A stretch of DNA of 64,000 nt from positions 32,001-96,000 of the forward strand of contig CBDBCY010000004.1 in the NCBI GenBank assembly GCA_965203555.1. The letters run 5' to 3'. Below are positions 7,247 through 58,400 of this stretch, piece by piece. The position numbers and the translations under genes were made by a program. Origin of the DNA: Acidimicrobiia bacterium. GTDB lineage: Bacteria; Actinomycetota; Acidimicrobiia; Spongiisociales; ZC4RG35. The notes under the pieces were generated by a model. It worked only from the letters and a program-made list of their open reading frames with translations, made no database searches and was not told the DNA's origin. Numbering within the stretch: the stretch's first letter is position 1; every line of letters begins with the position of its first letter.

Positions 7247-7268
7247 TGTCACACCCGCCTTCCATACT
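7247..7268 (+). promoter_or_regulatory. TGTCAC-N10-CATACT promoter, 7 nt before the rmuC ATG (PafBC/RecA-NDp-like)
   Basis: TGTCAC ACCCGCCTTC CATACT GGTGGGC ATG. Confidence 0.7.
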
Positions 7269-18399: not shown

Positions 18400-19827
18400 T
18401 CAGCGGTGGGACCGGCACCGCTGCTCGAACGGACAGGCGCCGCACCACTCGCCCACCTCAAAAGTGGGAGACGTCGCGTCCAGCAGGTCCCATTGGGAGG
18501 CGGCATGGGCCAGTTCGACCAGTTGCCGCGCCAGTTCCTCCATCTGTTCTCTTTTCCAGACTTTGCGATCACAGGTCGGTGTCTTTCCCGAGGTGGAGAG
18601 CTGATGGATGTGGGTAGTCACGGCGGGCGTCCTCTTGAACCGGAGCAGGGCGCCCAGCGCGTACAGTTCGGCCTCATAGGGGTAGACCCGGGGGGAGGCG
18701 CCGGTCTTGTGATCGATCACCACCGGGGTGTCGTCTCCTTCCCTTCCCACCCCGTCGGCAATGCCGTACAGCACCACCGAGACGGGTTTGCGCCCGGCGC
18801 CGAATCGGACGGTAAAGCCCAGGGGGAACTCGGTTTTCGTGATGTTGAGATCGGACGCACACGAAAGGCTCAGATGTTGGCGGTAGAGAGCCTCCGTCTC
18901 CAGGTCCTCGGAAAAAAACGATGCCGGGTCAGGCGACAGCAATGCCTGCGCCATCAACTCATGAAACCTGTTGCCCAGTTCCAGGCCGGGGGAGGTCTCA
19001 AGCGAGAAGTGATCGGGATCTACAGGGATGGAGAACATCGTCTTCCAGGCGGCCCTCCGTTGACAAAGTTCTATTTCAGGCAACCTCGATTTGGAGATCA
19101 TCATGCGAAACCCCGAAGTCTTACGCTTCGCATATGGGATGACATCCATGGCGTCGGGGTCCAGGGCGGGGAAGGTATCGCACAGGTCCGACACCCCGCA
19201 GGTCGAGCAGTGTGACCCTGCCACGATCCGGGGCTCACTGTCAATCATCTTCCGGTAGTCGTTTTCCAATGCCGCCAAGATCTCGCGCGCTCGCGTCCGG
19301 GGCATCTCCAGGCGGATCATCTCTCCGTCGGCGGTTCTTATCTCATAGGCCTCCATGGAGGTGGGAAAGCGCGAATCGGAGACAGTCACGGCTATCTCTT
19401 CGGGGGCGGTGGCGAACTCGGCGCCCTCTTTGATCTGCCCGGTCTTCAGCTTGTACATCGTCAGCGCTCCATCAGAGTCCCGGTGGGTGAATTGGAAGAA
19501 AACACTCAGCTCTTCGGGTCCGATCGGGTAGTTGAGTTGAGGCCAATCGAAGTCAAAATCTCCCTGCCCGGGCGCCGGCAGGAGTGGCAGTGCTCTGTTG
19601 ATCTGAGCAGCGACGATTTCCGCCTGCACCGGATCGAACCGTTCCTCCACCGGGGGCGGGGGAGGCCGTCCGCCCAGCTCGGCAGCCAGGGCTTCCCAAG
19701 TGGCGCTCCATCTTCGCAACGGAGGGACATTGCGGTTGGTTCCAGGCGGCGACATTCCCAGGTCCGCAAAGGCGCCCGGGCAAATTCGCTTACCGGGTGC
19801 GCTGACCAGGTCCTTTGGTGCGCTCAT
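18400..19827 (-). CDS. Tandem Cas4/RecB-like PD-(D/E)XK nuclease with two Cys clusters
   Basis: CP...KLKTG...CxxCx5C followed by LCQRR...GNRFH...GIAD...IDHKTG...CxxCPx4C. Confidence 0.75.
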
Positions 19828-26637: not shown

Positions 26638-26802
26638 TCAGGCGGCGACATGCAGATCGACGGGCTGGCAGACCGAACAGGTGTGGGACGGCGGGTTCTC
26701 GATCGACTCGACGGTGACCCCGGCTTGGGTCATCCAGTCCATCATCTTCCGGCAGTCGACCGGATCGGTCTCGATATCGCGGAGGGTCATTTGGTGTTCC
26801 AT
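26638..26802 (-). CDS. 54-aa Cys/His-rich microprotein, probably leaderless
   Basis: MEHQMTLRDIETDPVDCRKMMDWMTQAGVTVESIENPPSHTCSVCQPVDLHVAA*; ATG lies 7 nt after a TAGATT -10. Confidence 0.65.
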   Translation of the reverse strand: MEHQMTLRDIETDPVDCRKMMDWMTQAGVTVESIENPPSHTCSVCQPVDLHVAA

Positions 26803-26809
26803 GGGAACC

Positions 26810-26831
26810 AATCTAAGAGGGGGGTGTGACA
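26810..26831 (-). promoter_or_regulatory. TGTCAC-N10-TAGATT promoter upstream of microprotein-adnAB
   Basis: Minus strand TGTCAC ACCCCCCTCT TAGATT GGTTCCC ATG. Confidence 0.75.
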
Positions 26832-27761: not shown

Positions 27762-27783
27762 ATCATAAGAAGGGGCCGGGACA
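27762..27783 (-). promoter_or_regulatory. TGTCCC-N10-TATGAT promoter upstream of the RecB-like nuclease
   Basis: Minus strand TGTCCC GGCCCCTTCT TATGAT CGACGA TTG ATG. Confidence 0.6.
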
Positions 27784-32966: not shown

Positions 32967-33607
32967 TCGGACTGGGAGGGGCTTTTGTGGCGGGGGTGGC
33001 GCTGGGACCGTTCGTGGACGGTTGGGTCACTCGTCAATTGGCCAAAGACGGGTTGGGCAGACCGGACTTGTGGCGCCCGGCCACGCGGTGGATGCTCACC
33101 GCCGTATTGGGGGTGGGATGGGCGGCGACCTGGGTGAAAGTTGGCTGGACGGGGGTGTTGCCGGCACATCTGGTATGGGTGACGATTACCTCGGCCCTGG
33201 TGATGACCGATCTGGAGCACAAACTGATCCCCAATCGGATCCTCTACCCCGGAACGGGAATAACCGCCGCCCTGTTGCTGGCGGGCGCTCTCCTGGACGG
33301 CGTGCCCGATCGGTTGGGGAGCGCGGCCCTCGGAGCGGTCCTGTGCCTGGTGGGGATGGGAGTGCTGTCCGCCGCGGCGAGGGGCGCGATGGGTATGGGG
33401 GATGTCAAGCTGTCGGCGCTGCTCGGCCTGATCTGCGGCTACCGGGGGGTGACCACCACCCTGCAGGCGGTTCTGTTCGGTTTCATAATCGGAGGGGCGG
33501 CGGCCCTGGTCATGATGGTCACCCGCCGCGCCCACCGCCATACGCAACTTCCCTTCGCGCCCGCTCTCGTGGCCGGCGCCTGGTGGTCGTTGCTCGGGCC
33601 ACTTTGA
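32963..33607 (+). CDS. Prepilin peptidase (A24 family)
   Basis: TDLEHKLIPN, MGMGDVKL and LPFAP motifs; hydrophobic. Confidence 0.9.
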   Translation: MIGLGGAFVAGVALGPFVDGWVTRQLAKDGLGRPDLWRPATRWMLTAVLGVGWAATWVKVGWTGVLPAHLVWVTITSALVMTDLEHKLIPNRILYPGTGITAALLLAGALLDGVPDRLGSAALGAVLCLVGMGVLSAAARGAMGMGDVKLSALLGLICGYRGVTTTLQAVLFGFIIGGAAALVMMVTRRAHRHTQLPFAPALVAGAWWSLLGPL

Positions 33608-33673
33608 ACTCGTGAACCGAGGCGGGGGCGGACGGGACGAGCGGCGGGGAGGCGGTATCGGCGGGTCCTCGCC

Positions 33674-36625
33674 TCACAGGATGGGTCCGGCGTCGGGGTC
33701 GAGCGAATCGGAGGGCTGGTCCCGGGGCGGGGCGGAATCGGTGAAGAAGGCGGTCAACTCGTAGGGGCCGGCCAGGTCGTGGCGCACGGAGAAGACCGCG
33801 TTGTGGCCGTTGCGCAGAAGGCATATGTCCACCCTGCCGAGTTGCGCGTCTCCTCCCGGTTGATGGTGATCCACCGGCGGCAGCCAAACCCGCGGTCTCC
33901 AGTCGCGGTCGGTCTTGTCGACCAGCGCCTTCTGGCGAAAATACACCGGGTTGACCTCGGCGTCGAGATCGGGGAGGATCGAGAGCAGGAAGTCCCGGCA
34001 GGCCGGGCCGCCGGTCCTGGCCGGGATCAGGGTGTCGATCTCGCTCAACACCCAATCGGAGCCTTCCGGGTCCTGGATGCGGTCGAGGCGTTCCCGCAGC
34101 GCGGGGTCGTGCTCGCCGGAGCGGAGGGTGGAGAGAAACCTCCAGCGGAGGCTGATGCGGGCGCGTTCGGAGTCGGCCAGGTGGGTGACCACCCGCGGAT
34201 CCTCGTCCGGTCGTCTGCGGTCTGAATACTGGGCGGTCAGACCTCCGGCGTAGTCCTGTTGGAAGGTTCCTATGGCGGCTTTGTGCTGGGAAGATACCCA
34301 TCCTGGAACGGCCATGCGCTGCACCCACTTCTCCCGGGCCGTCTCCAGCCATCCGATGGGCATCCGGTAGATTCCCAGGGCCGCCTTCTGCGCAGAGAAG
34401 GAACGGGACTGTCCCTCCTCGTCCTCGGGGTTGTCCTGGGCGCCGAAGGGGTGCCAGATGATGTCCGCCCAGGCGGCCGCCGAGCCTGTGAACTGCTCAC
34501 GGGCCTCTCTGGCTTCCTCCTCTTTTTCCACCGCCCCGGTGATGTCCTCTTCCAGGCCGGCCAGGGTTCTCAGTTGCGACCTCAACAGGTGTTCGGCATT
34601 TCCGTACCACCAGCCCGCCACCACCAGCACGGCCAGGGCCAGCATCAGCGCCACGCCGGCCGCCACGCTCAGTCTGAGGGTTCGCTCGGAGGCGTCGACG
34701 TCGCCGTACCAGCCGTGTTGGCGCGCCAGCAGTCCGATGACGCCTATGGATGCATACACCATCGTGATCAGGATGAAGTGCCGCAGCACCCTGGCGACCA
34801 TCGGAGTGGAGCGGAGCGTCCAGATCAGCCCCACCTGCAGGGCGAACAGTCCCAGGGCGGCGCCGAATCCCAGCGCATCATAGGGGTTGATATCCGAACT
34901 GACCGCGTAGGCGAGGGCAGCGGTTGCCGCTACCCCGACGGTCACCGCGGCCAATCTCCTCAACGATCTCTTCAGGTCGCGGCGCCCCTGGGTTTGTCGT
35001 TCTCGGTTTTGGTATTCGCTGTGAGCGGAGACGGTGGAGGCGACTATCGCGACCACCATCAGCCCGGTGAGGCATATCCAGACAAAGGTGCGCTGGGCGC
35101 CGGTCATGGCCACGATTCCGAGGGCTTCCGCCGGTCCGGTGCCCAGGATGAGGCCGACCAGGGCCGCAAGCAGCAGTCCGATGAAGACAACCGAGATCCA
35201 GGCCAGGTCGGGCAGGCGGCGGCGACCCAGTTGGGCGAACTCGTCGTCGAACTCGCCGACCGCGGCGCGCAGGGACTGCCCGTTGGCGTCGATGATCTTC
35301 GAGAGCGCCGTTCCGATCCGTCCGAACAGGGTGGTGGTGTCCTGGCGAATCCGGTCCGGAAGGGACGGGGAGTTTTCGCTTTCGTCGTTGCGTGATCGGT
35401 CCGGGCAGGGAAAGAGTACTCCCAGGTCGGTGATGAGAGCGTGCCGGGTGTGGGAGCGGGGAGGCGAGATCACTTCCGGCACCGGGCCGCCGTCCACCAT
35501 TCCCAGGACCGCGTCTCCCATGTCCCGCCAGATCTGTTGGGGAATCCGGGCGCCTCCGGCAACCTGGAATCGATTGCGGGCGGCGGCCGCGGACTGTTCG
35601 GCGGGGGAGGGTTCGGATTCGGGTTCGCCGGCGACGGCTCGGCACACCGCCGCGGTCGTAGATGAGTCTCCCATCTCCCGGCGGACGATCTTTTCCACCG
35701 GATCGCGGGAGGAACCGAACAACCACTCGGGCAGTCTGCCCATGAAACTGGTGATTCCTCTGCCCAAACGCAGGAAAATGAACCGCCACCCTCGGATGGT
35801 CGCCGAATCCGGGGAGCGGAATTCGAATGCATCCCGCAACCGGCGCTCGAATTGCTCGGCCACATCAATCATTGCCGGTTCGGGATAGGGCGCCTCGACC
35901 AGGCCTTCGGGAGCGGGCAGATAGCCCCGGTGATTGAAGGAGGTGGCGAACTGGGGCGAATCGACCTGCGCCACCCGGACGAAGGAACGGGCCAGATGGA
36001 GTTTGGACTCTCCGAATCCGAGCACGCCGCTTTCGAGATCGTCCACCGGAGATTCGGTCATCCCCGTCCACAGACCCACCAGGGTGGCGGTCTCGGTGGC
36101 GACGTGCTCGACGAAGGTGGGCGAGTCGGGTTGGGCGACCGGAGAAGCGAGGGAGTCGCTGGTGGACCGGTCTTCGGGGATCACCACCAGGTTGGCGTCG
36201 GCGCGGGGAGAAAAGAACCTCGCCAGCGCCGGTTCGTCTCTTCGGATCGGATCGGCGCGAAGGGGAAGCCACATTCTCACCTGCACCACCCGCAGCCCCG
36301 GCGGGGCCAGTTCGTTCAGTTGGGAGCAGACATCCTGAGCCAGCACTCCGAGTTCGTCGGCATTCTCCAGATCGGGCCCGGCCATGGCCACCACCCGGAT
36401 TGTCCGGTATTCACGCCGGCCCAGTGTTTCCAGCAGGTCCACCTCTCTGCGGCCCGACGGGTCGGACAGCCGGCCCTTCCCGCGGCCCGACGGGTCGGAC
36501 AGCAGAGCCGAATCGGTGGCGATGAAGGGCGCCACCAGGCCCAACGATGCCCGCTGGCTGAGCAGGTCGAGCGCTTCGTCGAGCGAGTCGGCGCCGGTGA
36601 TCAGCACTGAGAAGTGAGGTTTCAC
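33674..36625 (-). CDS. Large polytopic membrane protein (~983 aa), last gene of the tubulin-vWA operon
   Basis: GTG start overlaps the upstream TGA; soluble N-domain, several hydrophobic helices, coiled coil, soluble C-domain. Confidence 0.8.
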   Translation of the reverse strand: MKPHFSVLITGADSLDEALDLLSQRASLGLVAPFIATDSALLSDPSGRGKGRLSDPSGRREVDLLETLGRREYRTIRVVAMAGPDLENADELGVLAQDVCSQLNELAPPGLRVVQVRMWLPLRADPIRRDEPALARFFSPRADANLVVIPEDRSTSDSLASPVAQPDSPTFVEHVATETATLVGLWTGMTESPVDDLESGVLGFGESKLHLARSFVRVAQVDSPQFATSFNHRGYLPAPEGLVEAPYPEPAMIDVAEQFERRLRDAFEFRSPDSATIRGWRFIFLRLGRGITSFMGRLPEWLFGSSRDPVEKIVRREMGDSSTTAAVCRAVAGEPESEPSPAEQSAAAARNRFQVAGGARIPQQIWRDMGDAVLGMVDGGPVPEVISPPRSHTRHALITDLGVLFPCPDRSRNDESENSPSLPDRIRQDTTTLFGRIGTALSKIIDANGQSLRAAVGEFDDEFAQLGRRRLPDLAWISVVFIGLLLAALVGLILGTGPAEALGIVAMTGAQRTFVWICLTGLMVVAIVASTVSAHSEYQNRERQTQGRRDLKRSLRRLAAVTVGVAATAALAYAVSSDINPYDALGFGAALGLFALQVGLIWTLRSTPMVARVLRHFILITMVYASIGVIGLLARQHGWYGDVDASERTLRLSVAAGVALMLALAVLVVAGWWYGNAEHLLRSQLRTLAGLEEDITGAVEKEEEAREAREQFTGSAAAWADIIWHPFGAQDNPEDEEGQSRSFSAQKAALGIYRMPIGWLETAREKWVQRMAVPGWVSSQHKAAIGTFQQDYAGGLTAQYSDRRRPDEDPRVVTHLADSERARISLRWRFLSTLRSGEHDPALRERLDRIQDPEGSDWVLSEIDTLIPARTGGPACRDFLLSILPDLDAEVNPVYFRQKALVDKTDRDWRPRVWLPPVDHHQPGGDAQLGRVDICLLRNGHNAVFSVRHDLAGPYELTAFFTDSAPPRDQPSDSLDPDAGPIL

Positions 36626-39600
36626 AGCAAAGTGGGGGGTAGGGTTTTCTGGTCGCTCAGGCAGTCCTTGAGCTGGGTCAGAGACTTGATTATCTGGTCG
36701 TGGAGGCCGAGCCAGGAGTGCTGTGAGGTCTGAGTCTCCAAATCGGTCTCGTACAGACCGTGATAGGCCCGCGCCGTCTCGTCCAGCAATCGGGTGGCCT
36801 CGTCCACTCCGGCTACTCTGGCGCTGCGGCCGGCGACGGTCTTCCCGGTGCGCAGCCACTCGGAGAGCATCTGGCTGGGGCGCCGGTACTGGGACAGGCT
36901 GTGCCCGGCCGTGCCCGGCTCTCTTCCCCATTCCACCAACTGCTGGTAGGGCCCCAGGTAGCTGCCGAAGTCTCTCCAGGTGGCGGCTATGGGCAGAGCT
37001 ATCGCCAGACCTTCGATGAGTTCGGCCAGCACGTCCGGGGACCGCCCTCCGCCCACTCCCAGCAGGTCGGGCAATTTCAGGACGCCCCGGTGGGAGTGGA
37101 GCAGTATCGGTCGGCTCTCGGTGTCGATCGTTCCCAGCAGCCGCCCGGTGAACCAACCCCGCAGCATCGCCAGCAGAGTGGGGGCGGGAAGGGGCGCCGC
37201 CACCTGCAGCGGGCGGGTACGACGCCACTTCCAAAAGTTCTGGATCATGCCGTTGTCTCTCGCCCATCTGTATTTGTCGGCGATGGGACTCATCAGCGAA
37301 TCGAACACGATCGGATGCAGGGCGCTGTTCAAAGAGCAATAGACGGGGATCTTGTTGAGCTTCTCGTCCTGGGAGAGGCAGCGGACGGCGGTGTCCCGGT
37401 CCCGGTCGAACCTGGCGGTGAGAAACTCCGTCACCTGGTCTTCCAGGGCCAGACCTCGTATCGGTATTTTCCCCGGCACCGGACGGATGGCCATCTCCGT
37501 GGCCGGGTGGACCCTGGCCAGGATGCTCTCATCCACCGACGCCAGCGGTTCGGCCGCCTCGAACGCCGCCTCCAGCTGGTGGCGAAAGCGGTCCCCCCGC
37601 CTGGCGAGTTCGGTTTGAGATACGGTTTTGCTCTCCGACAGGTAGGACCGCAGGCCCTGGGACAGAAAGCCGTCCCAGGCCGAGCCGTCGGTGTGGAGCC
37701 ACTCTCGGGCCCGGGCGAGGATGTCGTCGCGTCCCACGGCTATTCGAAAGGCGGCCGAGTTCCGGGGGCCTTCTCCCAGCACCAGGGTCTCCCGGGTGCG
37801 CCAGCGCTGGGTTTCCTGCAGCCAGCCGGCCGGAGTGGGCGCCTGCGGTTCACCGAGGATTATCGCCCGGCGAACGCTGCTCTGCTGATCCAGGCTTCCG
37901 CCCGCGCCGCTGCCCAGGGTGGCGGCGGTGAGTTCGTCGAAGAGCCGGGGATACTGTTCGAGATCGATCAGGGTCTTGACGCTTTGTCCGGGAATCAGCG
38001 AGTCGGGGACGTTCTGATCAGACTCGGGCTCATGCCGGGGCCAACCGGCCACCGGGGTGCGTTCGTTTTCGATGTCGTCCGCCAGTTTGTCGGCGGCGTC
38101 CTGCAGTTCTCTGCGCAGAGGGGCTAGAAAGTCGCGGTGGAAGTCCTCCACCAGCTGGGAGGCCAGCAGGCGGACGATGCCCTGGTATCTACGGACCACC
38201 CCGGTGTTCAGCGCCGTCGATATGGCCTTGCTGACATCGGGGTGATCGAAGCGGAGGACGCCTCCGCCGGACAGGATCGATCCCACGTCCGAGCGCAGAT
38301 GTTGGGAGAGCTGGTCCTCCCCGTGGCTTTCCTCCTCCAGCTCTTTGGCCACGTCCTCCATCTCCCGCTGGGCGAGATCGAGCAGCCGGGCCGTGACCCG
38401 CGCTCCCCGCTCCGCCACGAAGGTTCCCACCCGGGCGACAATGCGGGGCTGGGCTTTCCTGGCCCATTCCGCCACCGAGTTGCGCAGTTCCGTGTCCCAC
38501 TTCTGCAGGATCCCTCTCCTACGGGCCTTGACCTCCTCGACGATGGAGTAGATCCACTCCTGGGGCTTTTCCTTGTCGCTGCGCTGCCCCAACGCCTCCT
38601 GGATGCTCCGGAACACCGCGCTCAATTCTGCCCTCAGCCGACTTTCGGGAAGGCCGATCGCATCGATGATCTGGTTGTTGTCGGGTCCGCGTTCGTTGAT
38701 TTCACACTGTTCGAGAAACCGGGTGAAGGACTCTTCGGCGAGTTTCTCGATGCGGTCTTCTTCGGAGAGATTGCGGTGCTCGTGCCGCTCGTCCGACAGC
38801 CGGCGATGGCCCGACAGTATCCATTCCACCGCGTCGCGGGTGAGGCGCCGTTCGGCGTACATCTCGAGGCGTTTGGCGCCCAGTTCCACTTCGGCGAATC
38901 CCAGGGCCTGGAAGGCGCCGACGTAGCTGGGGGGTTCCGCCAACAGACTCACCGGATCCGACGGATCGGCCTGTTTGAACTGGCCGGCCGAAGCCTGCCA
39001 GTTGGCCATCATGTAGGTGGCGAAATGGTCCTGGATGGTCGGGTCCGACATCACGGCCGCCAGGCAGCGTCCCATGAACCGGTAGATCTCGATCTGGTCG
39101 CCGAAATTCACCCCGCGGGCGTTGGACTGTCCCACCAGGTAGGGAAAGGCCGGGCCGGACCGCTGCTGGATGGGTCCGCCCCCGGGCGGGTTGAATCCGT
39201 TCCCTCCGAAATATCCGTGAAGAATCTCCGAATAGGCGGCCGCCGAGTTGGGCTGCACACCCTGGGCGGCGGAAAACGACAGTTCGTTGAAGACGTCGGC
39301 CGAATAGAGGATGCCCACCGAGTTGTCCAGCCATCGTTCCCCGTCGCTTCGGAGAACATCGCAGACGTCGATGAGAATCCCCGCCCCGGTTCCTCCCGCC
39401 AGGGAAGAGACCACGATCACGATCGGCGGAGGGGATTCGGCGCCGCCCATCCCTTCATCGATCTTCTCGGTCAATTCGCGCAACTGTGCGGCCGCTCCGG
39501 CGGTCATGATCGCCGCCCGCTTGCGGTTCAGGTGCTGCTTGACCTCGTTGATCTGGTGGAGACCGAGCATCCGACCGATCGATCGGAACTGGCCGGCCCC

Positions 39601-39930
39601 CATGTCGATGGGGATGTTCATGATCACCGGATCGACCTGCCACCCGCGCAGGTCGATCCCTCTGTCTTTGAGGACTTCCACGATGGTCTCGAACTCCACG
39701 CCGGGCGGGTTCAGGGAGAGATACTCGTCGGCGTCCAGGAGTTCGGGGTTACCGGCTATAACCGGCGAGTCCTGGTTGGGCGGGGTGTCGATGTGGAGAA
39801 ACTGCCACCCCTGGGGCATTTTCCCCTCCCACCCCACCTGCCGGAACCACTCTCCGAGCGCCTGTTTCACATAGCGGAGAGTCTTCCCTCCCGATCCTCC
39901 CAGTCCCACCAGCAGAAATTTGCGCAACAC
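36622..39930 (-). CDS. Tubulin/FtsZ-like GTPase domain protein (Tubulin_2 / FtsZl type, ~1102 aa)
   Basis: VGLGGSGGKT, HIDT, GAGQFR..GR and SSLAGGTGAG tubulin-signature variant; long helical C-terminus; AGGAAAGGA RBS. Confidence 0.88.
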   Translation of the reverse strand: MLRKFLLVGLGGSGGKTLRYVKQALGEWFRQVGWEGKMPQGWQFLHIDTPPNQDSPVIAGNPELLDADEYLSLNPPGVEFETIVEVLKDRGIDLRGWQVDPVIMNIPIDMGAGQFRSIGRMLGLHQINEVKQHLNRKRAAIMTAGAAAQLRELTEKIDEGMGGAESPPPIVIVVSSLAGGTGAGILIDVCDVLRSDGERWLDNSVGILYSADVFNELSFSAAQGVQPNSAAAYSEILHGYFGGNGFNPPGGGPIQQRSGPAFPYLVGQSNARGVNFGDQIEIYRFMGRCLAAVMSDPTIQDHFATYMMANWQASAGQFKQADPSDPVSLLAEPPSYVGAFQALGFAEVELGAKRLEMYAERRLTRDAVEWILSGHRRLSDERHEHRNLSEEDRIEKLAEESFTRFLEQCEINERGPDNNQIIDAIGLPESRLRAELSAVFRSIQEALGQRSDKEKPQEWIYSIVEEVKARRRGILQKWDTELRNSVAEWARKAQPRIVARVGTFVAERGARVTARLLDLAQREMEDVAKELEEESHGEDQLSQHLRSDVGSILSGGGVLRFDHPDVSKAISTALNTGVVRRYQGIVRLLASQLVEDFHRDFLAPLRRELQDAADKLADDIENERTPVAGWPRHEPESDQNVPDSLIPGQSVKTLIDLEQYPRLFDELTAATLGSGAGGSLDQQSSVRRAIILGEPQAPTPAGWLQETQRWRTRETLVLGEGPRNSAAFRIAVGRDDILARAREWLHTDGSAWDGFLSQGLRSYLSESKTVSQTELARRGDRFRHQLEAAFEAAEPLASVDESILARVHPATEMAIRPVPGKIPIRGLALEDQVTEFLTARFDRDRDTAVRCLSQDEKLNKIPVYCSLNSALHPIVFDSLMSPIADKYRWARDNGMIQNFWKWRRTRPLQVAAPLPAPTLLAMLRGWFTGRLLGTIDTESRPILLHSHRGVLKLPDLLGVGGGRSPDVLAELIEGLAIALPIAATWRDFGSYLGPYQQLVEWGREPGTAGHSLSQYRRPSQMLSEWLRTGKTVAGRSARVAGVDEATRLLDETARAYHGLYETDLETQTSQHSWLGLHDQIIKSLTQLKDCLSDQKTLPPTLL

Positions 39931-39953
39931 GATACCTGTCCTTTCCTGTTCCT

Positions 39954-42812
39954 TTACCGAAAGCCGCGGTCCTTCACCCGGGCCAGGGCCGTTCTGACGA
40001 CCTCGGTGAGTTGCTGCCCGGAAGGAGCGTCGCCGCCGACGCCGGCCATCACCGCCCCGCGTGACCCACCCTCCTCGATCAGCACGATCGATTCGTGGAG
40101 CCGGTCCTTGTGGCCGATCCGATGGTGTCGGGCCGGCAGCTCCGTCATTGTGTCGCCGTCCATCACCGCCACGGAACGGGCGCCCGCCAGCGACAGTTCG
40201 GCGTAGGGCGGACGCCAGATCCGCCAGAACGGCGTCTTGCGGACAGCCTGCAGCGGCCCGGCCCCGATCCTGCCGGCCGACCACATGGGCAGGCGATGAT
40301 CCTCCTCTCCGATCTTGGTCTGTCCGTCCCCCGCCACCGTGAACTCCGCGTAGCGGGTGTTCGGCAGGCGGGGCAACCGTCCGGCCCGGCGATTGATCGC
40401 ATAGAGCGCCAGCCACAGCAGGGTGAACATCAAGAGCAGCAGCAAAGCGGAGAGAATTGTCTCCAGGGTACGGTTCCGTTCCCGGTCGATCGGCCCCGGC
40501 ACCGAGATGGCCAGTGGTTGGCGTTCGTCTTCGACGGAGACGCTGACGTAGCGGACAGTCATCCCCTGGTCGGTGTTCACCTGGCGCTCCAGTTCCACCT
40601 CCAGTTCGGTGGGCTTGGAGTCGCCGGTGTCCGAGCACCATATGGGATCGTGGTCCGCGAAGGCCACCGTGGCGGGGACTCGCTCCCCCTCTCCGCCGTC
40701 CACCTCCGTCGAGGTGTCCAGTTCGAGGCATCCGGGCGTGTCGTCCACTTTGACCGGGACCGTCAGATCCCGGCCCACCAGTGGCGCCAGCCGGGCATGG
40801 TCCAGTTCCATCACCGGACCGGGCGGCTGGGGATCGGCCTGGACCTGGAACGAGTCCGTGACCCACCCCACTTGCTCTCCCTCCCGCAACTCGAATCGGT
40901 AGACATGTATGCCGGGTTCGGATGAGGCGGGTACCCGCAGTGTCCCGTCCTCGGTCCAGACCGCGTCCAGTTCCTCATCGTCGCGGTACACCACGATGTC
41001 GTCCTGCTGTTCGGGGGTGAGCGGGCGGTTGTCGGCCTCCACCGCGAATTCCACGGGTCGGCCGGCCAGCACCGGCGAGGTCAGCAGTTCCGCCTCGAAG
41101 GGAAGTCGGTCCACTTCCACCACCACCGTGGACCTCACCCACCCCGACGGGGCGCCGCTTTGCAGCTCGAATTGGTAGGTGTGGGCGCCGGGTGCGGGCG
41201 CCACCGGGTCCTGGATCGTCCCGTCCTCGGTCCAGACCGCGTCCAGTTCCTCTCCGTCGCGGTACACGACGATGTCGTCCTGCTGTTCGGGGGTGAGCGG
41301 GCGGTTGTCGGCCTCCACCGCGAATTCCACGGGATCCCCGGCCACCGCCCGGGAGGTGGTGGTTTGCGCGTCCAGGGTCACCCCCTCCACCTGCACCGCC
41401 ACCGAGGCCGTGCCCGGTTCCCCCGAAGCGGTGCTGCCCAGTTCGAACTGGTAGGTGTGGGCGCCCGGTTCGGGTGCGGCCGGGTCCTGGAGGTTTCCCT
41501 CCGGGGTCCACCGTACACCGTCCACCGGTCGGCCGTCGCGGTGCACGGTGACGCGATTCCGCTCCTCGGGGGAGAGGGGGCGGGGATCCTCCTGGACAGA
41601 ACCGGTGGTAAGGGAGAACTCCAGGGGCTGTCCGGCCATGGCCGGGGAGGTGACCGCGGCGGCGGTGAGGTCGGGAGGCCCGAAGTCCACCGACCCGCAC
41701 ACCTGCTCCATGCGGCCTCCCCTGACCACCGGAGATGTGAATCGATGCTCCGAGTCGAATTCGAGCACCAGCCGGACGACGGACGGGTTCGAAACGTCAA
41801 GGACCGCCGGCTCGTGACCGGTCCGCAACTCCGCCCGCCCGGGACCAGCCAAAAGGGTCACCGACTCCACCAGTTCCGGGGGGATCCCGGAGGGAAGATC
41901 TCCATTCCATACCACTCCCTCGCCCGACCGGACGGTGAGGGAAGCGGGGTCGAGAGCCGTTCCCGAGAGGGAGGTGCAGGCGGCGTTGAAGAGCAGATCG
42001 TCCGAAAGGCTGTCCATGTCCGCCACCGGCCGGTGATCGAACTCCAGTGTCCCGCACCCCTTTTCATTGAGCAATTCGAACAGTCTCAGCGTATCCCCGT
42101 ACGGCTGGTCTCCCTCCAGGTAGAAAAGCCTGATCTCAAACGCCGGCACCTGCGCGCTGTCGAATTGCTCGGCCAATCCGAAGTACCGGGGGTTGATCTG
42201 GGAGCGGGACGCTTCGGTTCCGCAGATGGCGGGAATCAGCAAGCCCTCCACGTCGGAGAGATTCCCCCGGTCCGACAGGTCCCGTTGGAGGGTGTCGTAC
42301 GACCGGGGCAGCAGGAGGTCGCCCCTCGCCCGATGGTCCAGATCGTGCTGCCCGTCGCTGAACCACACCGTTCTTCGGCAATCGCTGCTCCACGGCATGT
42401 CCAGTATCCCGCGAAAAGCCTCGATGTAATCGGTGTGCCACCGGTACTCGTCCCGGTCCCATTCGTAGTCGACATGTCGGTCGGCGAATTCCTCGACCAG
42501 CAGGTGCAGACGGTCGGCATCGGTGTCCAGATCCAGGAATCCGTCGCTGTAGGGTCTGAAAGTGGCGGCGAAACCGGCCAGGGCCACCGAGATGTCCACC
42601 TGCTGATTGGCCCTGAGGTTGGCCAGGTACTCCTTGGTGGCGTCTATGCGTCGGTTGCGGGGGTCGTTGGTGTCTATCGACCCGGACTCGTCGAGGAGGA
42701 TCAGCACCTCCAGGGAATTGCATGTCTGCGGTGTCTGCGCTTGCGCCCCGGAAGGCGGCAAAACAGCCAAAAGGGTTACGATCACCGCGGCGAGGGCTGC
42801 GTACCGCTTCAA
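39954..42812 (-). CDS. Exported vWA-domain protein with internal repeats and a C-terminal TM anchor (~952 aa)
   Basis: Signal peptide ending AQA, MIDAS LLDESGS...TDY...FSDG, ~92-aa repeats, TM ILSALLLLLMFTLLWLALYAI followed by a cytoplasmic tail. Confidence 0.85.
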   Translation of the reverse strand: MKRYAALAAVIVTLLAVLPPSGAQAQTPQTCNSLEVLILLDESGSIDTNDPRNRRIDATKEYLANLRANQQVDISVALAGFAATFRPYSDGFLDLDTDADRLHLLVEEFADRHVDYEWDRDEYRWHTDYIEAFRGILDMPWSSDCRRTVWFSDGQHDLDHRARGDLLLPRSYDTLQRDLSDRGNLSDVEGLLIPAICGTEASRSQINPRYFGLAEQFDSAQVPAFEIRLFYLEGDQPYGDTLRLFELLNEKGCGTLEFDHRPVADMDSLSDDLLFNAACTSLSGTALDPASLTVRSGEGVVWNGDLPSGIPPELVESVTLLAGPGRAELRTGHEPAVLDVSNPSVVRLVLEFDSEHRFTSPVVRGGRMEQVCGSVDFGPPDLTAAAVTSPAMAGQPLEFSLTTGSVQEDPRPLSPEERNRVTVHRDGRPVDGVRWTPEGNLQDPAAPEPGAHTYQFELGSTASGEPGTASVAVQVEGVTLDAQTTTSRAVAGDPVEFAVEADNRPLTPEQQDDIVVYRDGEELDAVWTEDGTIQDPVAPAPGAHTYQFELQSGAPSGWVRSTVVVEVDRLPFEAELLTSPVLAGRPVEFAVEADNRPLTPEQQDDIVVYRDDEELDAVWTEDGTLRVPASSEPGIHVYRFELREGEQVGWVTDSFQVQADPQPPGPVMELDHARLAPLVGRDLTVPVKVDDTPGCLELDTSTEVDGGEGERVPATVAFADHDPIWCSDTGDSKPTELEVELERQVNTDQGMTVRYVSVSVEDERQPLAISVPGPIDRERNRTLETILSALLLLLMFTLLWLALYAINRRAGRLPRLPNTRYAEFTVAGDGQTKIGEEDHRLPMWSAGRIGAGPLQAVRKTPFWRIWRPPYAELSLAGARSVAVMDGDTMTELPARHHRIGHKDRLHESIVLIEEGGSRGAVMAGVGGDAPSGQQLTEVVRTALARVKDRGFR
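40942..41333. repeat. Near-identical 116-nt direct repeat (40942-41057 and 41218-41333; period 276 nt) inside the vWA gene
   Basis: Both copies encode PVEFAVEADNRPLTPEQQDDIVVYRD(G/D)EELDAVWTEDGT; a third, diverged copy lies near 41440-41640. Confidence 0.92.
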
Positions 42813-43225
42813 AGTGTCAGATCCCGAGCGATTCTGATGGCGATCATGTAGCCGGACCACAAGGCCGACACGAAGGAGATCACCAGAGCCGAAATTACCA
42901 CTGCGGTCGAATTCCACCACCGACCCACCCACGCCGGGCCCTGGCCGAGTTGTTTCAGTCGAAAGAGAGCGAACCCGGGGAAGGACAGCCCCACCACTGC
43001 CAGGATTCCCCCGAGAGCCAGGAGGAAGTTGGGATCGTCGAAGCGCAGGTGGCGGATTTCCTCGCCCATCCGGGCCATGACCACGGACGCCGCCGACCCG
43101 GTAAGCAAAAGAGCAAGCCACCATCCCCCTCCCTCTTCCCATGGGGCGCCCCGTCTCCGGCTGAGCGTCCTTTCCCGGTGGCGCTGGTCAGGTGGTTCGT
43201 ATTCAAATCTAAAATCGGAAGACAT
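42809..43225 (-). CDS. Small 3-TM membrane protein, first gene of the tubulin-vWA operon
   Basis: Three hydrophobic segments; stop overlaps the TTG start of the vWA gene. Confidence 0.75.
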   Translation of the reverse strand: MSSDFRFEYEPPDQRHRERTLSRRRGAPWEEGGGWWLALLLTGSAASVVMARMGEEIRHLRFDDPNFLLALGGILAVVGLSFPGFALFRLKQLGQGPAWVGRWWNSTAVVISALVISFVSALWSGYMIAIRIARDLTL

Positions 43226-43233
43226 TGGTGAAC

Positions 43234-43255
43234 AATATACAGAAAGGGTGTGACA
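43234..43255 (-). promoter_or_regulatory. TGTCAC-N10-TATATT promoter of the tubulin-vWA operon, largely overlapped by a 29-bp inverted repeat (43238-43266)
   Basis: Minus strand TGTCAC ACCCTTTCTG TATATT GTTCACCA ATG. Confidence 0.75.
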
Positions 43256-43440
43256 CGCTTTCTGTAAGTCCAAGGTCTTTCAGGCTCGGGTTCGTCATGC
43301 GGACGGTTAATCCGAACAGGTCGGAATTGAGTTCCGGTTCTGACCAGTGGTTTCGCCCGTTGTTTCTAATCCGCCGCCCACCCCGGTACGAATAGTCGCG
43401 GACTCAATCGACAGGCGCCCCCATTGGCGCCACAAACCGG

Positions 43441-44391
43441 CTACATTACGATGCTCACCACCCGGCCGCCCATGGGTTGCACGGGACGACTGTTCGGTCC
43501 GCCGCTCAGAGCCTGAAGCCCTTCGACCTGTTCCGCAGAGATGGTCTTCGGTCTGCGCATCACGAACCAGTCGACCGGTTCCTCGCAGGGGGGTGTCGTC
43601 TTCGATCCGTCGTATCTGAAATAGAAAGGGCCGTCCGGCCGGAAACTCCGGGCGTTCAGGGTGAATCCCTCGCCGATCTCGTCACCGGACACCGGGGCGA
43701 CCTCGAGAATCGCCTGCACCGCCGGGCTGGGCTCTCCCAACTGGAACAGTTGTCCCACCACCGCCAAGTCGCCGCGGTCGTCGGCGTGGACCAAGTGCAG
43801 TTCCGCCGCGTACCTCAGCCCGTCCACCAGATGTTCAGACGGTGTGTGAATGTGGGCCGACTCGAGTCGGTAAGTGCGCTCGCCGACGCTCAGAGTGTTT
43901 CCCGGTGGGTACTCGACGTGGACGAACTTCCCGTCGTTGCGGACGGTCCTGGCTTCGAAGGCGTATAGGAAGGACATCGGCGTGTAGTCCTCTCGGACGT
44001 ATCCGGTGATGTCGATCGGCGATTGCTGTTTGCCCTTCGAGCAGTTTTCGTACCGCTTGGACAGCGAACCCCAATGCTGCGGCCCGCCCGGCCCCTCATA
44101 CCCCCAGTCCACCCGTCTCATCCTGGCCACTCTGATCTCCCACATGACGTACACCAGGCATGTCAGGCCGATGAAAAGCCCCCTCCAATAGAGTCTACCT
44201 GTCCTTGGTCCTGATCCTGACCAGTTCGGAAGCCACCATGGGACTACGGACGAGGCTGCCACCATGAGAAATGTCAACAGGCGTATACCCTTCTTGATCT
44301 GATCTCCCCCCAAGTAGGAAACGGTCATGTGCGATAGTCGGATGGTCCAGTGCGGACCGATCTGATGCCCAATAAGATTAATTGTCATCAC
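43441..44391 (-). CDS. Alpha-class carbonic anhydrase, with possible N-terminal hydrophobic extension
   Basis: WGYEG..GPQHW, QQSPIDI, HIHTPSEH, ELHLVH, GSKTTPPC. Confidence 0.9.
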   Translation of the reverse strand: MMTINLIGHQIGPHWTIRLSHMTVSYLGGDQIKKGIRLLTFLMVAASSVVPWWLPNWSGSGPRTGRLYWRGLFIGLTCLVYVMWEIRVARMRRVDWGYEGPGGPQHWGSLSKRYENCSKGKQQSPIDITGYVREDYTPMSFLYAFEARTVRNDGKFVHVEYPPGNTLSVGERTYRLESAHIHTPSEHLVDGLRYAAELHLVHADDRGDLAVVGQLFQLGEPSPAVQAILEVAPVSGDEIGEGFTLNARSFRPDGPFYFRYDGSKTTPPCEEPVDWFVMRRPKTISAEQVEGLQALSGGPNSRPVQPMGGRVVSIVM

Positions 44392-55490: not shown

Positions 55491-58400
55491 ATGCCCGCCC
55501 GCCGCGACATCCGTTCCATCCTGCTGGTGGGATCGGGGCCGATCGTCATCGGACAGGCCTGTGAGTTCGACTATTCGGGAACTCAGGCCGCCAAGGCCCT
55601 GCGCCGGGAGGGTTACCGGGTGTTGCTGGTCAACTCCAATCCGGCCACCATCATGACCGATCCCGAGTTCGCTGACCAGACCTACGTGGAACCCATCACC
55701 CCCGAGGTGGTCGAACGGATCATCGACAAGGAGCGTCCCGACACCTTGCTGCCGACGCTGGGTGGACAGACGGCCTTGAACATCACCGCCCAACTGGTGG
55801 GGAGGGGGACGCTGGAAAGGTACGGGGTGGAGTTGATCGGGGCGGGAATGGAAGCAATCGAGCGGGCGGAGGATCGGGGGAGATTCCGGGAGGTGATGGC
55901 TGAGGCCGGACTCGAGACACCCAAGGCGGGATACGCCAAGTCGATGCAGGATGCCCGCTCCATCGCCGCCCGACTGGGATACCCCCTCATGATACGACCG
56001 TCCTACATCCTGGGAGGAGGGGGGACCGGGATGGCCTACGACGCCCGGCAGTTCGAACAGGTGGCCCGCCGGGGACTGGCCGCCTCGCCGGTGAGGGAAA
56101 TCCTGGTGGAGGAGTCGGTGGAGGGCTGGAAGGAATTCGAACTGGAGGTGATGAGGGACCACGCCGACAATGCAGTGGTGATCTGTTCGATAGAGAACCT
56201 CGACGCCATGGGCGTGCACACCGGAGATTCGATAACCGTGGCGCCCATCCAGACCCTTTCTGACCGGGAATACCAACAAATGCGGGACGATGGGATCAAG
56301 GTGCTGCGGGCGATCGGGGTGGAGACGGGAGGTTCCAACGTTCAATTCGCGGTGGCGCCGGAATCGGGCCGGCGGCTGGTGATCGAGATGAATCCCCGGG
56401 TCTCCCGTTCCTCGGCCCTGGCCTCCAAGGCCACCGGCTTTCCCATCGCCAAGATCGCCGCGCTGCTGGCGGTGGGTTACACCCTGGACGAGATCACCAA
56501 CGACATCACCGGTCAGACGCCCGCTTCGTTTGAACCGGCGCTTGATTACGTTGTGGTGAAGGCCCCCCGTTTCGATTTCGCCAAGTTCGCGGCAACTCCC
56601 CGCCGGTTGGGGTCTTCAATGCAAAGTGTCGGAGAGGCGATGGCGATCGGACGAACCTTTCCTGAGGCGCTGCAAAAGGCGCTTCGGAGCCTGGAGACCG
56701 GGCGGTTGGGTCTTGGGGCGGATCCCGCCTCCGACCAGATGGAGAAACTGTCCGGCCCGCAACTGAGCGAACTGTTGGCCATTCCCAATCCCGACCGCGT
56801 GGTGGCAGTCGGTGAGGCGCTGCGAAGAGGATGGTCCCCCGAGAAGGTCTGCGGGCTGACCGCCTACGATCCCTGGTTCGCCCACCAGATCGGCGAGATC
56901 GTGCAACTTCGGGAGGAGTTGTGGATCAGGGGTCCGCAGGATGACCTGTGGGGGGACGCCAAGCGCTACGGGTTCTCGGACGCCCAACTTTCATATCTGT
57001 GGGGCAGGACCGAAGAGGAGATCAGACAGGCAAGACTGGCCAGGGGAATCCGGCGGACCTATAAGACGGTGGACACCTGCGCGGCGGAGTTCGAGGCCCA
57101 GACCCCCTACATGTACGGGACCTTTGAGGACGAAGACGAGGTTCCGCCCGCCCGTCGTCCTCGAGTGGTGGTGCTGGGCGCCGGTCCCAACCGGATCGGC
57201 CAAGGGATAGAATTCGACTACTGCTGCGTGCAGGCCGCCTTTGCCTTGGGGGAGGTGGGATACGAGACAGTGATGGTCAACTGCAACCCCGAGACGGTAT
57301 CCACCGACTATGACACCTCCCATCGTCTCTATTTCGAGCCCCTTACGGTGGAGGACGTGCTGGATGTCGTAGCCGCAGAACAGCCGGTGGGGGTGATAGT
57401 GCAGTTCGGCGGACAGACTCCGCTCAACCTGGCCGGAAGGCTCGCCGAGGCAGGGACACCGATCGCCGGGACCTCTCCGGCTTCGATCGACCTGGCCGAA
57501 GACCGGGAAAGCTTCTCGGAGTTGTGCAAGCGATTGGGCATTCTCCAACCCCGCCACGGCTTGGCCCGGTCGCGGTCGGAGGCTCGCCAAGTGGCCGGCG
57601 AGATGGGCTTTCCGGTGGTGGCGCGGCCCTCCTTTGTTTTGGGAGGTAGAAAAATGCAGGTGCTGGCGGATTCCGGGGAACTGGACGTTTACCTGGACGA
57701 GGTATATGGAAACATCGACGAAGCCGATCTGGCCGCCGCCCCGTTGCTGATCGACTCCTTTTTGGAATCGGCGATCGAAATCGATGTCGACGCCGTGTAC
57801 GACGGGGAGGAATTGTTGATGGGAGGCATCATGGAACATGTCGAGGAGGCCGGGGTCCATTCCGGAGACTCTGCTTGCATCACTCCACCTCGCACCCTGG
57901 GCGGGGCCGCTCGCCGCGCGATACATGCCATGACTGCATCCTTGGCTGAAGCTTTGCAAGTGCGGGGTTTGATCAACGTTCAATATGCAGTTAAGGGTGA
58001 GGATGTATATCTACTGGAGGCCAATCCTCGGGCATCCCGCACCGTCCCGTTCATCTCCAAGGTGCGGGGATTGCCCCTGGCCAAGTTGGCGGCCCGGGTG
58101 ATGATGGGCGCCACCCTGGCGGAATTGCGATCAGAAGGACTGTACCGGGAGGGGTCGAAGCCCCCAATGGTCGGAGTCAAGGAGGCTGTATTGCCGTGGG
58201 ATCGCTTCCCCAGTTCCCACCCGGTGCTGGGTCCGGAGATGCGGGCTACCGGGGAGGTCATGGGGGTGGGAACCGACTGGAGGATCGCCTATGGAAAGGC
58301 GTTGCTGGGCGCCGGGGACCGGCTGCGAAGTTCGGGAACGGTGTTGATGCTGCTGGCGGAGGCCGACATAGGCGATGGTGAATCGCTGGTGGCCGGATGG

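Follow-up and report, generated by a model that had tools for sequence, protein, structure and literature searches.

A predicted PafBC-type DNA damage promoter at an accessory FtsZl1-vWA membrane operon in Acidimicrobiia

Main

What turns on, and what is the use of, an operon that places a distant relative of tubulin and FtsZ beside an exported von Willebrand factor A (vWA) protein and membrane proteins? The question is raised by four genes, here g1 to g4, in a 64,000-nucleotide (nt) stretch of an Acidimicrobiia bacterium genome (assembly GCA_965203555.1, contig CBDBCY010000004.1, positions 32,001 to 96,000). We call this whole stretch the window, and positions are given in its coordinates unless another contig is named. 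The operon type is already known since 2010, when FtsZl1-vWA operons were defined computationally by Makarova and Koonin (PMC2875224). FtsZl1/Tubulin_2 is one of the branches that have diverged most within the tubulin/FtsZ superfamily; a 2023 phylogeny, as far as its available text goes, uses these proteins just as a divergent outgroup (PMC9871819), and the literature searched contained no functional test of FtsZl1/Tubulin_2.

A sequence-only reading of the window had proposed that this operon is driven by a promoter of the DNA damage type. Following up that proposal, we find it probable that the locus is a chromosomal FtsZl1-vWA operon of the accessory kind, and that a 'sigma-adaptation' promoter dependent on PafBC yields one leaderless mRNA for all four genes.

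A PafBC-type promoter precedes a four-gene operon

The four genes are co-oriented and tightly coupled on the minus strand, where they span 43225..33674. The first, g1 (43225..42809, ATG start), encodes a small membrane protein of 138 amino acids (aa); g2 (42812..39954, TTG start, 952 aa) encodes an exported vWA protein with a metal ion-dependent adhesion site (MIDAS), a membrane anchor and a cytoplasmic tail; g3 (39930..36622, GTG start, 1102 aa) encodes the FtsZl1/Tubulin_2 GTPase; and g4 (36625..33674, GTG start, 983 aa) encodes a six-helix membrane protein. The g1/g2 and g3/g4 junctions are 4-nt overlaps (TTGA and GTGA, respectively) and a 23-nt gap separates g2 from g3, so the coordinates of the open reading frames (ORFs) bear out the anatomy and the three junctions described in the sequence-only reading. 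Because homologues of g1 in two genomes of the same genus begin at the aligned position (MSDDFRFEH... and MSEYRYEP...), the ATG at 43225 is the likely start of g1.

Immediately ahead of this start, at 43234..43255 on the minus strand, lies a PafBC-type promoter with a -26 element TGTCAC (43255..43250) and a -10 element TATATT (43239..43234), separated by N10. The operon start thus reads TGTCAC-ACCCTTTCTG-TATATT-GTTCACCA-ATG, with 8 nt between the -10 element and the ATG at 43225. The published PafBC motif, tGTCgg(N10)tA(N3)T, spans 22 nt without a -35 element, and its GTC triplet is described as nearly invariant in actinobacteria (PMC8635444); this promoter type is also covered in PMC6789036. 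PafBC is reported to be activated by single-stranded DNA (ssDNA; PMC11804915) and to adapt RNA polymerase (RNAP) with SigA to such -26/-10 hybrid promoters (PMC8635444). The element found here departs from the consensus in just two bases after the GTC, and the PafBC-like promoter type claimed for the first gene fits the published motif. Since the start codon lies 8 nt past the -10 element, a leaderless operon mRNA is predicted. Sites of the sigma-70 -35/-10 type numbered 0 across 33300..43600, and terminator candidates, 8 against 5.9 in shuffled sequence, did not rise above background. The genome also carries the regulator on which the proposal hinges, as a pafBC-like pair of adjacent ORFs, one with WYL and WCX domains and the other with HTH_PafC, WYL and WCX domains.

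The motif is enriched around the operon and in the genome at large. In the window, the strict pattern TGTC-N12-TAnnnT was observed 5 times against 1.36 expected, a count reached by 0 of 100 shuffles, and 4 of the 5 copies lie just ahead of gene starts. The whole genome (3.42 Mb) contains 94 strict matches, many of them inside genes. Among these 94, the form TGTCAC-N10-TAnnnT accounts for 26, whereas the 179 letter-permutations of TGTCAC have a median count of 3 (mean 3.25, maximum 13). Genes behind genomic copies include recA and dnaB, recognised from their N-terminal sequences, and a set identified with Pfam: Lhr, an SNF2 helicase, an RNase_T exonuclease, a DUF222-HNH protein, DUF5131, a DNA methylase, an SMC_N/AAA protein, DUF6361, a TnpB-like protein and an AMP-binding enzyme. 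In at least nine motif-preceded genes the distance from the -10 element to the start codon is 5-9 nt, and leaderless mRNAs are predicted for regulon genes on that account. Because PafBC is activated by ssDNA and adapts RNAP-SigA, co-induction of the operon with recA, lhr and adnAB after damage is predicted. On these sequence features, induction of the operon by DNA damage or ssDNA through PafBC is a well-supported prediction.

The promoter motif recurs at some homologous operons

Among 40 related genomes, 3 have a homologue of g3: 2 of the 16 that belong to the same genus, and 1 from a different genus. In the class as a whole, 17 of 401 genomes, this one included, encode PF13809, the Pfam family of g3. 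In one of the two other same-genus operons, TGTCACACCTCTTCTTTACCTT is followed by 7 nt and then the ATG; in the other, TGTCACACCC..TACATT, with 13-nt spacing, is followed by 8 nt and then the ATG. All three same-genus operons, counting the one described here, retain TGTCACACC together with TAnnTT. The proteins themselves have diverged considerably, with 40-63% identity overall: compared with this operon, identity is 60-62% for g3, 52-53% for g2, 46-49% for g4 and 40-44% for g1, whereas between the same genomes RecA is 94-98% and Lhr 84-90% identical. The location differs too, with an A24 peptidase gene, a carbonic anhydrase gene and generally housekeeping neighbours flanking the operon here, and E1 dehydrogenase and PIG-L deacetylase genes flanking the other two, that is, a different chromosomal site. 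Of the features compared here, the promoter elements alone have been kept. In homologous loci across the class, the g2-g3-g4 order is kept with overlapping or near-abutting genes, and g1 homologues occupy the same operon position in three related genomes (G007, G008 and G109).

A larger sample comprised 80 loci from species-representative genomes of Acidimicrobiia and Actinomycetes, collected with an alignment query (a single-g3 query had given no relative); 64 of them had at least 4200 nt of upstream sequence. Searching the coding strand from -4200 to -2400 relative to the g3 start, we found the strict N12 motif in 14 of 64 loci, while none of 11 control windows or strands had more than 2 (0-2 of 58-64). 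Allowing N11-13 spacing gave 15 of 64 loci against 0-3 in each of 13 control windows or strands. A relaxed -10 element, NAnnnT, was dropped, as 19 of 64 loci against 4-26 in controls left no usable contrast.

The motif-positive loci comprise 7 of the 8 Acidimicrobiia loci at 45-60% identity, all from metagenome-assembled genomes (MAGs), and, in Actinomycetes, 2 Occultella, 3 of 7 Microbacterium (with the canonical TGTCGG), 2 MAGs and 1 Subtercola (N13). A g1-like small membrane protein is encoded by the next ORF after the motif in 11 of the 15. Related genomes being non-independent, the 15 loci are to be read as roughly four or five lineages. Homologous operons thus do carry the motif, in 3 of 3 cases within the genus and in 14 of 64 wider loci against 0-2 in controls, and the sequence-level link between PafBC motif and operon is recurrent, not universal.

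Predicted architecture of the four proteins

The GTPase g3 matches Pfam Tubulin_2 (PF13809) with an E value of 6.7e-42 and 144.4 bits (cut-off 27), residues 6-368 aligning to profile positions 1-355 of 356, and is the single PF13809 copy in this genome. Its tubulin/FtsZ-fold domain is N-terminal, at about residues 1-360, and the glycines of a T1-like GLGGSGGKT (GxGxxG) and a T4-like SLAGGTGAG (GGTG-type) motif are invariant. An AlphaFold2 model of residues 1-480, built from 83 sequences, reached a predicted local distance difference test score of 85.0, and Foldseek matched it to CetZ with an E value of 1.2e-6; the modelled domain is a tubulin/FtsZ nucleotide-binding fold. Within residues 369-1102 no other Pfam family scored above cut-off, FtsZ_C and Tubulin_C included, and residues 480-1102 gave no usable match in an Atlas search, placing the C-terminal ~740 aa outside any known family in Pfam and Atlas. 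The g3 family profile found helical low-complexity matches only among Protein Data Bank (PDB) sequences, and hydropathy gave no typical transmembrane (TM) segment.

The g2 protein itself is a weak match to Pfam VWA_2 (E value 1.2e-3, 19.9 bits, under the cut-off of 27). Eight of ten g2 homologues match VWA_2 at E<=0.01, the best at 4e-10, and the MIDAS residues (DxSxS...T...D; D41, S43, S45, T127 and D153) do not vary among the 10 aligned sequences, which leaves the MIDAS of the vWA domain (about residues 36-160) intact. Together with the PF13809 match, these results support the FtsZl1/Tubulin_2 and vWA assignments made from the sequence. Hydropathy suggests a signal-like N terminus, a single TM segment at 785-803 and a tail of ~150 aa; the label 'outer sensor' that had been given to g2 would follow from this topology. 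The family profile of g2 gave two weak matches among PDB sequences (E values of ~7e-4 to 9e-4). Between head and anchor, the stalk consists of ~92-aa tandem repeats, visible in the DNA as a 276-nt period with 2.0 copies and 80% matches at 40942..41491 on the minus strand. This 276-nt tandem duplication points to a recent expansion of the extracellular part.

Two clear hydrophobic segments and one weaker segment were seen in g1, the N terminus of which is conserved (F-x-F-E-Y-E-P-like). It had no Pfam match and, in NCBIfam, only a sub-threshold match to HtpX (19.6 bits, cut-off 275); NCBIfam returned nothing for g2, g3 or g4. In g4, six TM segments between residues 477 and 670 separate a soluble N-terminal domain (1-466, in which an alpha/beta core occupies 1-216 and the rest is helical) from a soluble C-terminal domain of ~310 aa (671-983). 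Because the number of TM helices is even, the two domains should lie on the same side of the membrane, and from the basic residues ahead of the first helix we infer that this side is cytoplasmic. The g4 family is not small: a single-protein search gave just 3 relatives, but with an exhaustive profile search the number of representatives was 938 at E<=1e-3 (240 at E<=1e-30).

There was no Pfam match for g4, for its C-terminal domain or for the g2 tail. For the g4 N-terminal domain, Foldseek returned nothing at E<=1e-3, its Atlas rows were all below 0.9 (the nearest named cluster, at 0.79, being 26% Tubulin_2), and the margin above unrelated Rossmann-type folds (7.8-7.4) was small. G-box motifs were not found in this domain, and when the g4 and g3 families were compared with hhalign, both runs gave a probability of 0.1%, that is, no homology. 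A complex prediction for g3 1-480 and g4 1-470 with GTP (score 0.01, mark 0.32) was not used either way. A role of the g4 N-terminal domain as a 'pseudo-tubulin partner' of g3 is possible but unproven.

Other genes behind the motif

The sequence-only reading had noticed the same motif before rmuC, adnAB and a RecB-like nuclease gene in the window. We located these copies, with nuclease genes of the PD-(D/E)XK type behind two of them. The copy before rmuC (7247..7268, plus strand; -26 TGTCACACCC, -10 CATACT) lies 7 nt before the ATG and escapes the strict pattern by one -10 mismatch (CATACT). On the minus strand, TGTCACACCCCCCTCTTAGATT at 26810..26831 precedes the adnAB-like helicase-nuclease pair, TGTCCCGGCCCCTTCTTATGAT at 27762..27783 precedes the gene for a 321-aa PD-(D/E)XK nuclease, and TGTCGGACCTGTGCGATACCTT at 19172..19193 lies 22 nt before the ATG of the second PD-(D/E)XK nuclease ORF. 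A further strict copy at 57294-57315 (minus strand) sits inside carB, on the opposite strand to that gene, and is most likely a chance match. Between the promoter and the adnA-like gene lies a 54-codon ORF (26638-26802, minus strand) that starts 7 nt past the -10 element; it had no Pfam match and could encode a leader peptide or be a small gene on the same transcript.

Elsewhere in the genome, a TnpB-like gene (OrfB_IS605 plus Cas12f1-like TNB, 435 aa; contig C2, 86582-87918) begins 7 nt after a perfect TGTCACACC...TAACCT, so that a transposon-associated TnpB-like nuclease seems to have joined the damage regulon too. Promoters of the TGTCACACCC type on contig C4 precede genes for an N6_N4_Mtase (1258763-1259730), DUF6361 (2990022-2991293) and an SNF2-type helicase (1111713-1114822). 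Because these methylase, DUF6361 and SNF2 genes carry such promoters, the predicted regulon mixes repair genes with genes of restriction or mobile-element appearance. One 22-nt motif recurs with identical flanks at C3 ~2303 and C4 ~2114439; C3, a short contig, probably carries a stretch repeated from C4. Among the relatives, the recA locus of genome G023 (L059/L060) has its RecA match split (profile 1-198 and 194-262) in one stop-free 736-aa frame, the appearance that a recA with an intein would have.

A proposed mechanism and its alternatives

Sequence and the published PafBC mechanism together suggest how the operon would be switched on. DNA damage or another source of ssDNA would activate PafBC, which would let RNAP-SigA use the TGTCAC(-26)/TATATT(-10) hybrid promoter, and the products of g1 to g4 would then appear alongside those of recA, lhr, adnAB, dnaB, rmuC and several nuclease genes. 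Since gene order is conserved, and given the predicted topology, we infer that the four products form one membrane complex. In it, the metal-dependent vWA/MIDAS head of g2 would stand on its repeat stalk outside the cell with its ~150-aa tail in the cytoplasm, g1 and the six-helix g4 would make up the membrane core, and soluble g3 would be held at the membrane by the two large cytoplasmic domains of g4 and the g2 tail. GTP-dependent assembly of g3 might then alter the envelope during DNA repair.

Several observations weigh against this reading. At the promoter, the -26 element in this genus is TGTCAC instead of the mycobacterial TGTCGG. There is no SOS box (<=2 mismatches) within 1.5 kb upstream of g1, nor was one found upstream of any operon examined. 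This genome does hold 26 SOS boxes at <=1 mismatch, one adjoining recA; we take the consensus to be of the TCGAAC-N4-GTTCGA type. The motif was not found in 49 of 64 loci, including most Actinomycetes loci and the whole ~40%-identity clade; in three genomes of that clade TGTC-N12-TAnnnT stands before recA (3/3) and lhr (2/3), not before the operon. As most homologous operons are without the motif, the core function of the operon cannot depend on DNA damage control. A first wider sample had even shown the motif in 0 of 11 loci outside the genus, two of which (L039 and L040) had almost no upstream sequence; the genus-specific link that this suggested was overturned by the 15 of 64 in the larger sample. 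As to the proteins, contacts among the four are read from gene order and topology. Structural matches of g3 mostly cover the nucleotide-binding domain to about H7, ending at residues ~250-275. By the account of Makarova and Koonin, T6-H7 and the C-terminal domain are not detectable in FtsZl1, and filament formation by FtsZl1 was left open (PMC2875224). Because the matches stop at about H7 and those parts were not found in FtsZl1, filament formation by g3 is uncertain.

Could the motif be fortuitous? If it were a chance match, or a housekeeping -10 element with an accidental TGTC, the operon would be constitutive or otherwise regulated, as the 94 genomic occurrences (many inside genes), the copy within carB and the motif-free majority of homologous operons might suggest. 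Yet the extended TGTCACACC is retained in three operons the first gene of which is just 40-44% identical, the enrichment is position- and strand-specific (14 of 64 loci against 0-2 in controls), and an alternative -35/-10 promoter was not found in 33300..43600; we consider this explanation very improbable. A damage checkpoint would keep the PafBC promoter and give the operon another purpose, with a membrane-held FtsZ-like GTPase disturbing the FtsZ ring and delaying division until repair ends, like inhibitors of the DidA/SulA type. The FtsZ/tubulin fold of g3 and the predicted co-regulation with repair genes that share the motif agree with such a role, and WYL-type damage regulators are reported to induce division inhibitors elsewhere, as with DriD and didA (PMC9186387). 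However, the known cases need one small inhibitor, whereas here there are four proteins totalling ~3,200 aa with a large extracellular part. Of the 16 genus genomes searched, 13 gave no sign of the operon, hence it is not a general checkpoint, and the damage promoter was not found at most homologous operons. Makarova and Koonin, moreover, argue against a direct role in division, canonical FtsZ also being present (PMC2875224), and a checkpoint appears quite improbable to us.

A module against phages or mobile elements is unlikely as well, if less so. Foreign ssDNA would here act through PafBC to raise an FtsZl1-vWA complex that blocks infection or kills by membrane damage. The patchy distribution (PF13809 in 17 of 401 class genomes, g3 in 3 of 40 relatives) speaks for it, as do the far faster divergence of the operon proteins (g3 60-62%, g4 46-49% and g1 40-44% identity versus 84-90% for Lhr), the two chromosomal sites within one genus, and the presence of the same motif before TnpB-like, DNA methylase, HNH and DUF6361/SNF2 genes; WYL regulators have also been tied to phage defence (PMC10693628, PMC12392091). 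Against this stand 0 matches among 5027 PADLOC models (PADLOC-DB 2.0) to any of the four proteins at E<=0.1, no homologue in 50,697 phage records, and homologues in 5 of 72,556 plasmid records, all non-mobilizable. The operon's neighbours are housekeeping rather than defence genes, and Pfam revealed no domain of the nuclease, protease or pore-forming kind in any of the four proteins.

For the operon as a PafBC-controlled membrane machine, the end function can be named with less assurance than the promoter. We tentatively favour, at less than even odds, a short-lived response to damage that acts on the envelope or is linked to division. Only slightly less likely is a module of the conflict or defence type set off by foreign ssDNA; damage-induced adhesion or aggregation is rather improbable, and other functions take the remaining share. 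A role in conflict or surface interaction would suit the fast divergence, the patchy distribution and the change of site within the genus. A bolder version would make FtsZl1-vWA cassettes envelope-spanning effectors of Actinomycetota triggered by damage or ssDNA, in which an integrin-like vWA receptor is coupled through the g2 tail and a membrane-anchored g4 N-domain pseudo-tubulin to a GTP-driven polymer of tubulin fold. Once switched on by PafBC, the system would remodel or seal the envelope, stop division or make an infection abort; we regard this version as a long shot.

Discussion

The operon resembles FtsZl1 loci as described by Makarova and Koonin in that g3 is a full-length Tubulin_2 protein with a long C-terminal extension, its gene adjoins genes for a MIDAS-intact vWA protein and lineage-specific membrane proteins, and its distribution is patchy (PMC2875224). 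It differs by its PafBC-type damage promoter, a link that the available text of that paper does not mention. It differs also by being a fixed actinobacterial g1-g2-g3-g4 cassette without the protein kinases, P-loop GTPases and OmpA proteins named there, although g1 and g4 may be in the supplementary tables of that study (PMC2875224).

The promoter, in turn, shares with the PafBC/RecA-NDp promoters of mycobacteria, as presented in PMC8635444, PMC6789036 and PMC11804915, the bipartite 22-nt layout, the GTC-bearing -26 element and the TGTC-N12-TAnnnT pattern without a -35 element. The genome likewise shares with the mycobacterial regulon the pafBC pair and the motif before recA, lhr, adnAB, dnaB and DUF222-HNH. 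By contrast, the PafBC literature searched, in its accessible text, says nothing of a cytoskeletal or envelope machine. The main text of PMC8682763 has tubulin, FtsZ, von Willebrand, cell division and membrane protein 0 times (supplementary gene lists were outside the search), and we found no paper naming both PafBC and tubulin in the literature searched, supplementary regulon lists being outside that search too. The recurrent link between FtsZl1 operons and the PafBC regulon appears new.

DriD-didA and other WYL damage responses, in the accounts available to us, are alike in that an ssDNA-sensing WYL activator turns on a membrane-associated effector outside repair; didA, however, encodes a small division inhibitor, whereas here a four-protein complex with an extracellular vWA head is predicted, and there is no sequence relationship. 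Integrin-type receptors combine an extracellular MIDAS-bearing vWA head, a repeat stalk, a single TM segment and a cytoplasmic tail, a layout to which that of g2, with its tail encoded beside a cytoskeletal GTPase, is analogous. This is analogy only: no homology past the vWA fold is claimed.

The PafBC link gives a concrete inducing condition, namely mitomycin C, UV or ssDNA, and cultured strains with this type of promoter at the operon exist in Microbacterium (M. ulmi, M. deminutum) and Occultella (O. aeris, O. glacieicola), making a question of about 15 years' standing experimentally approachable. It suggests that the actinobacterial damage response extends past DNA repair to an envelope-spanning machine. 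Should the bolder version of the model hold, a bacterial DNA damage regulon would for the first time have an output of cytoskeleton type, and a branch of the tubulin/FtsZ superfamily unexplained since 2010 would gain its first function.

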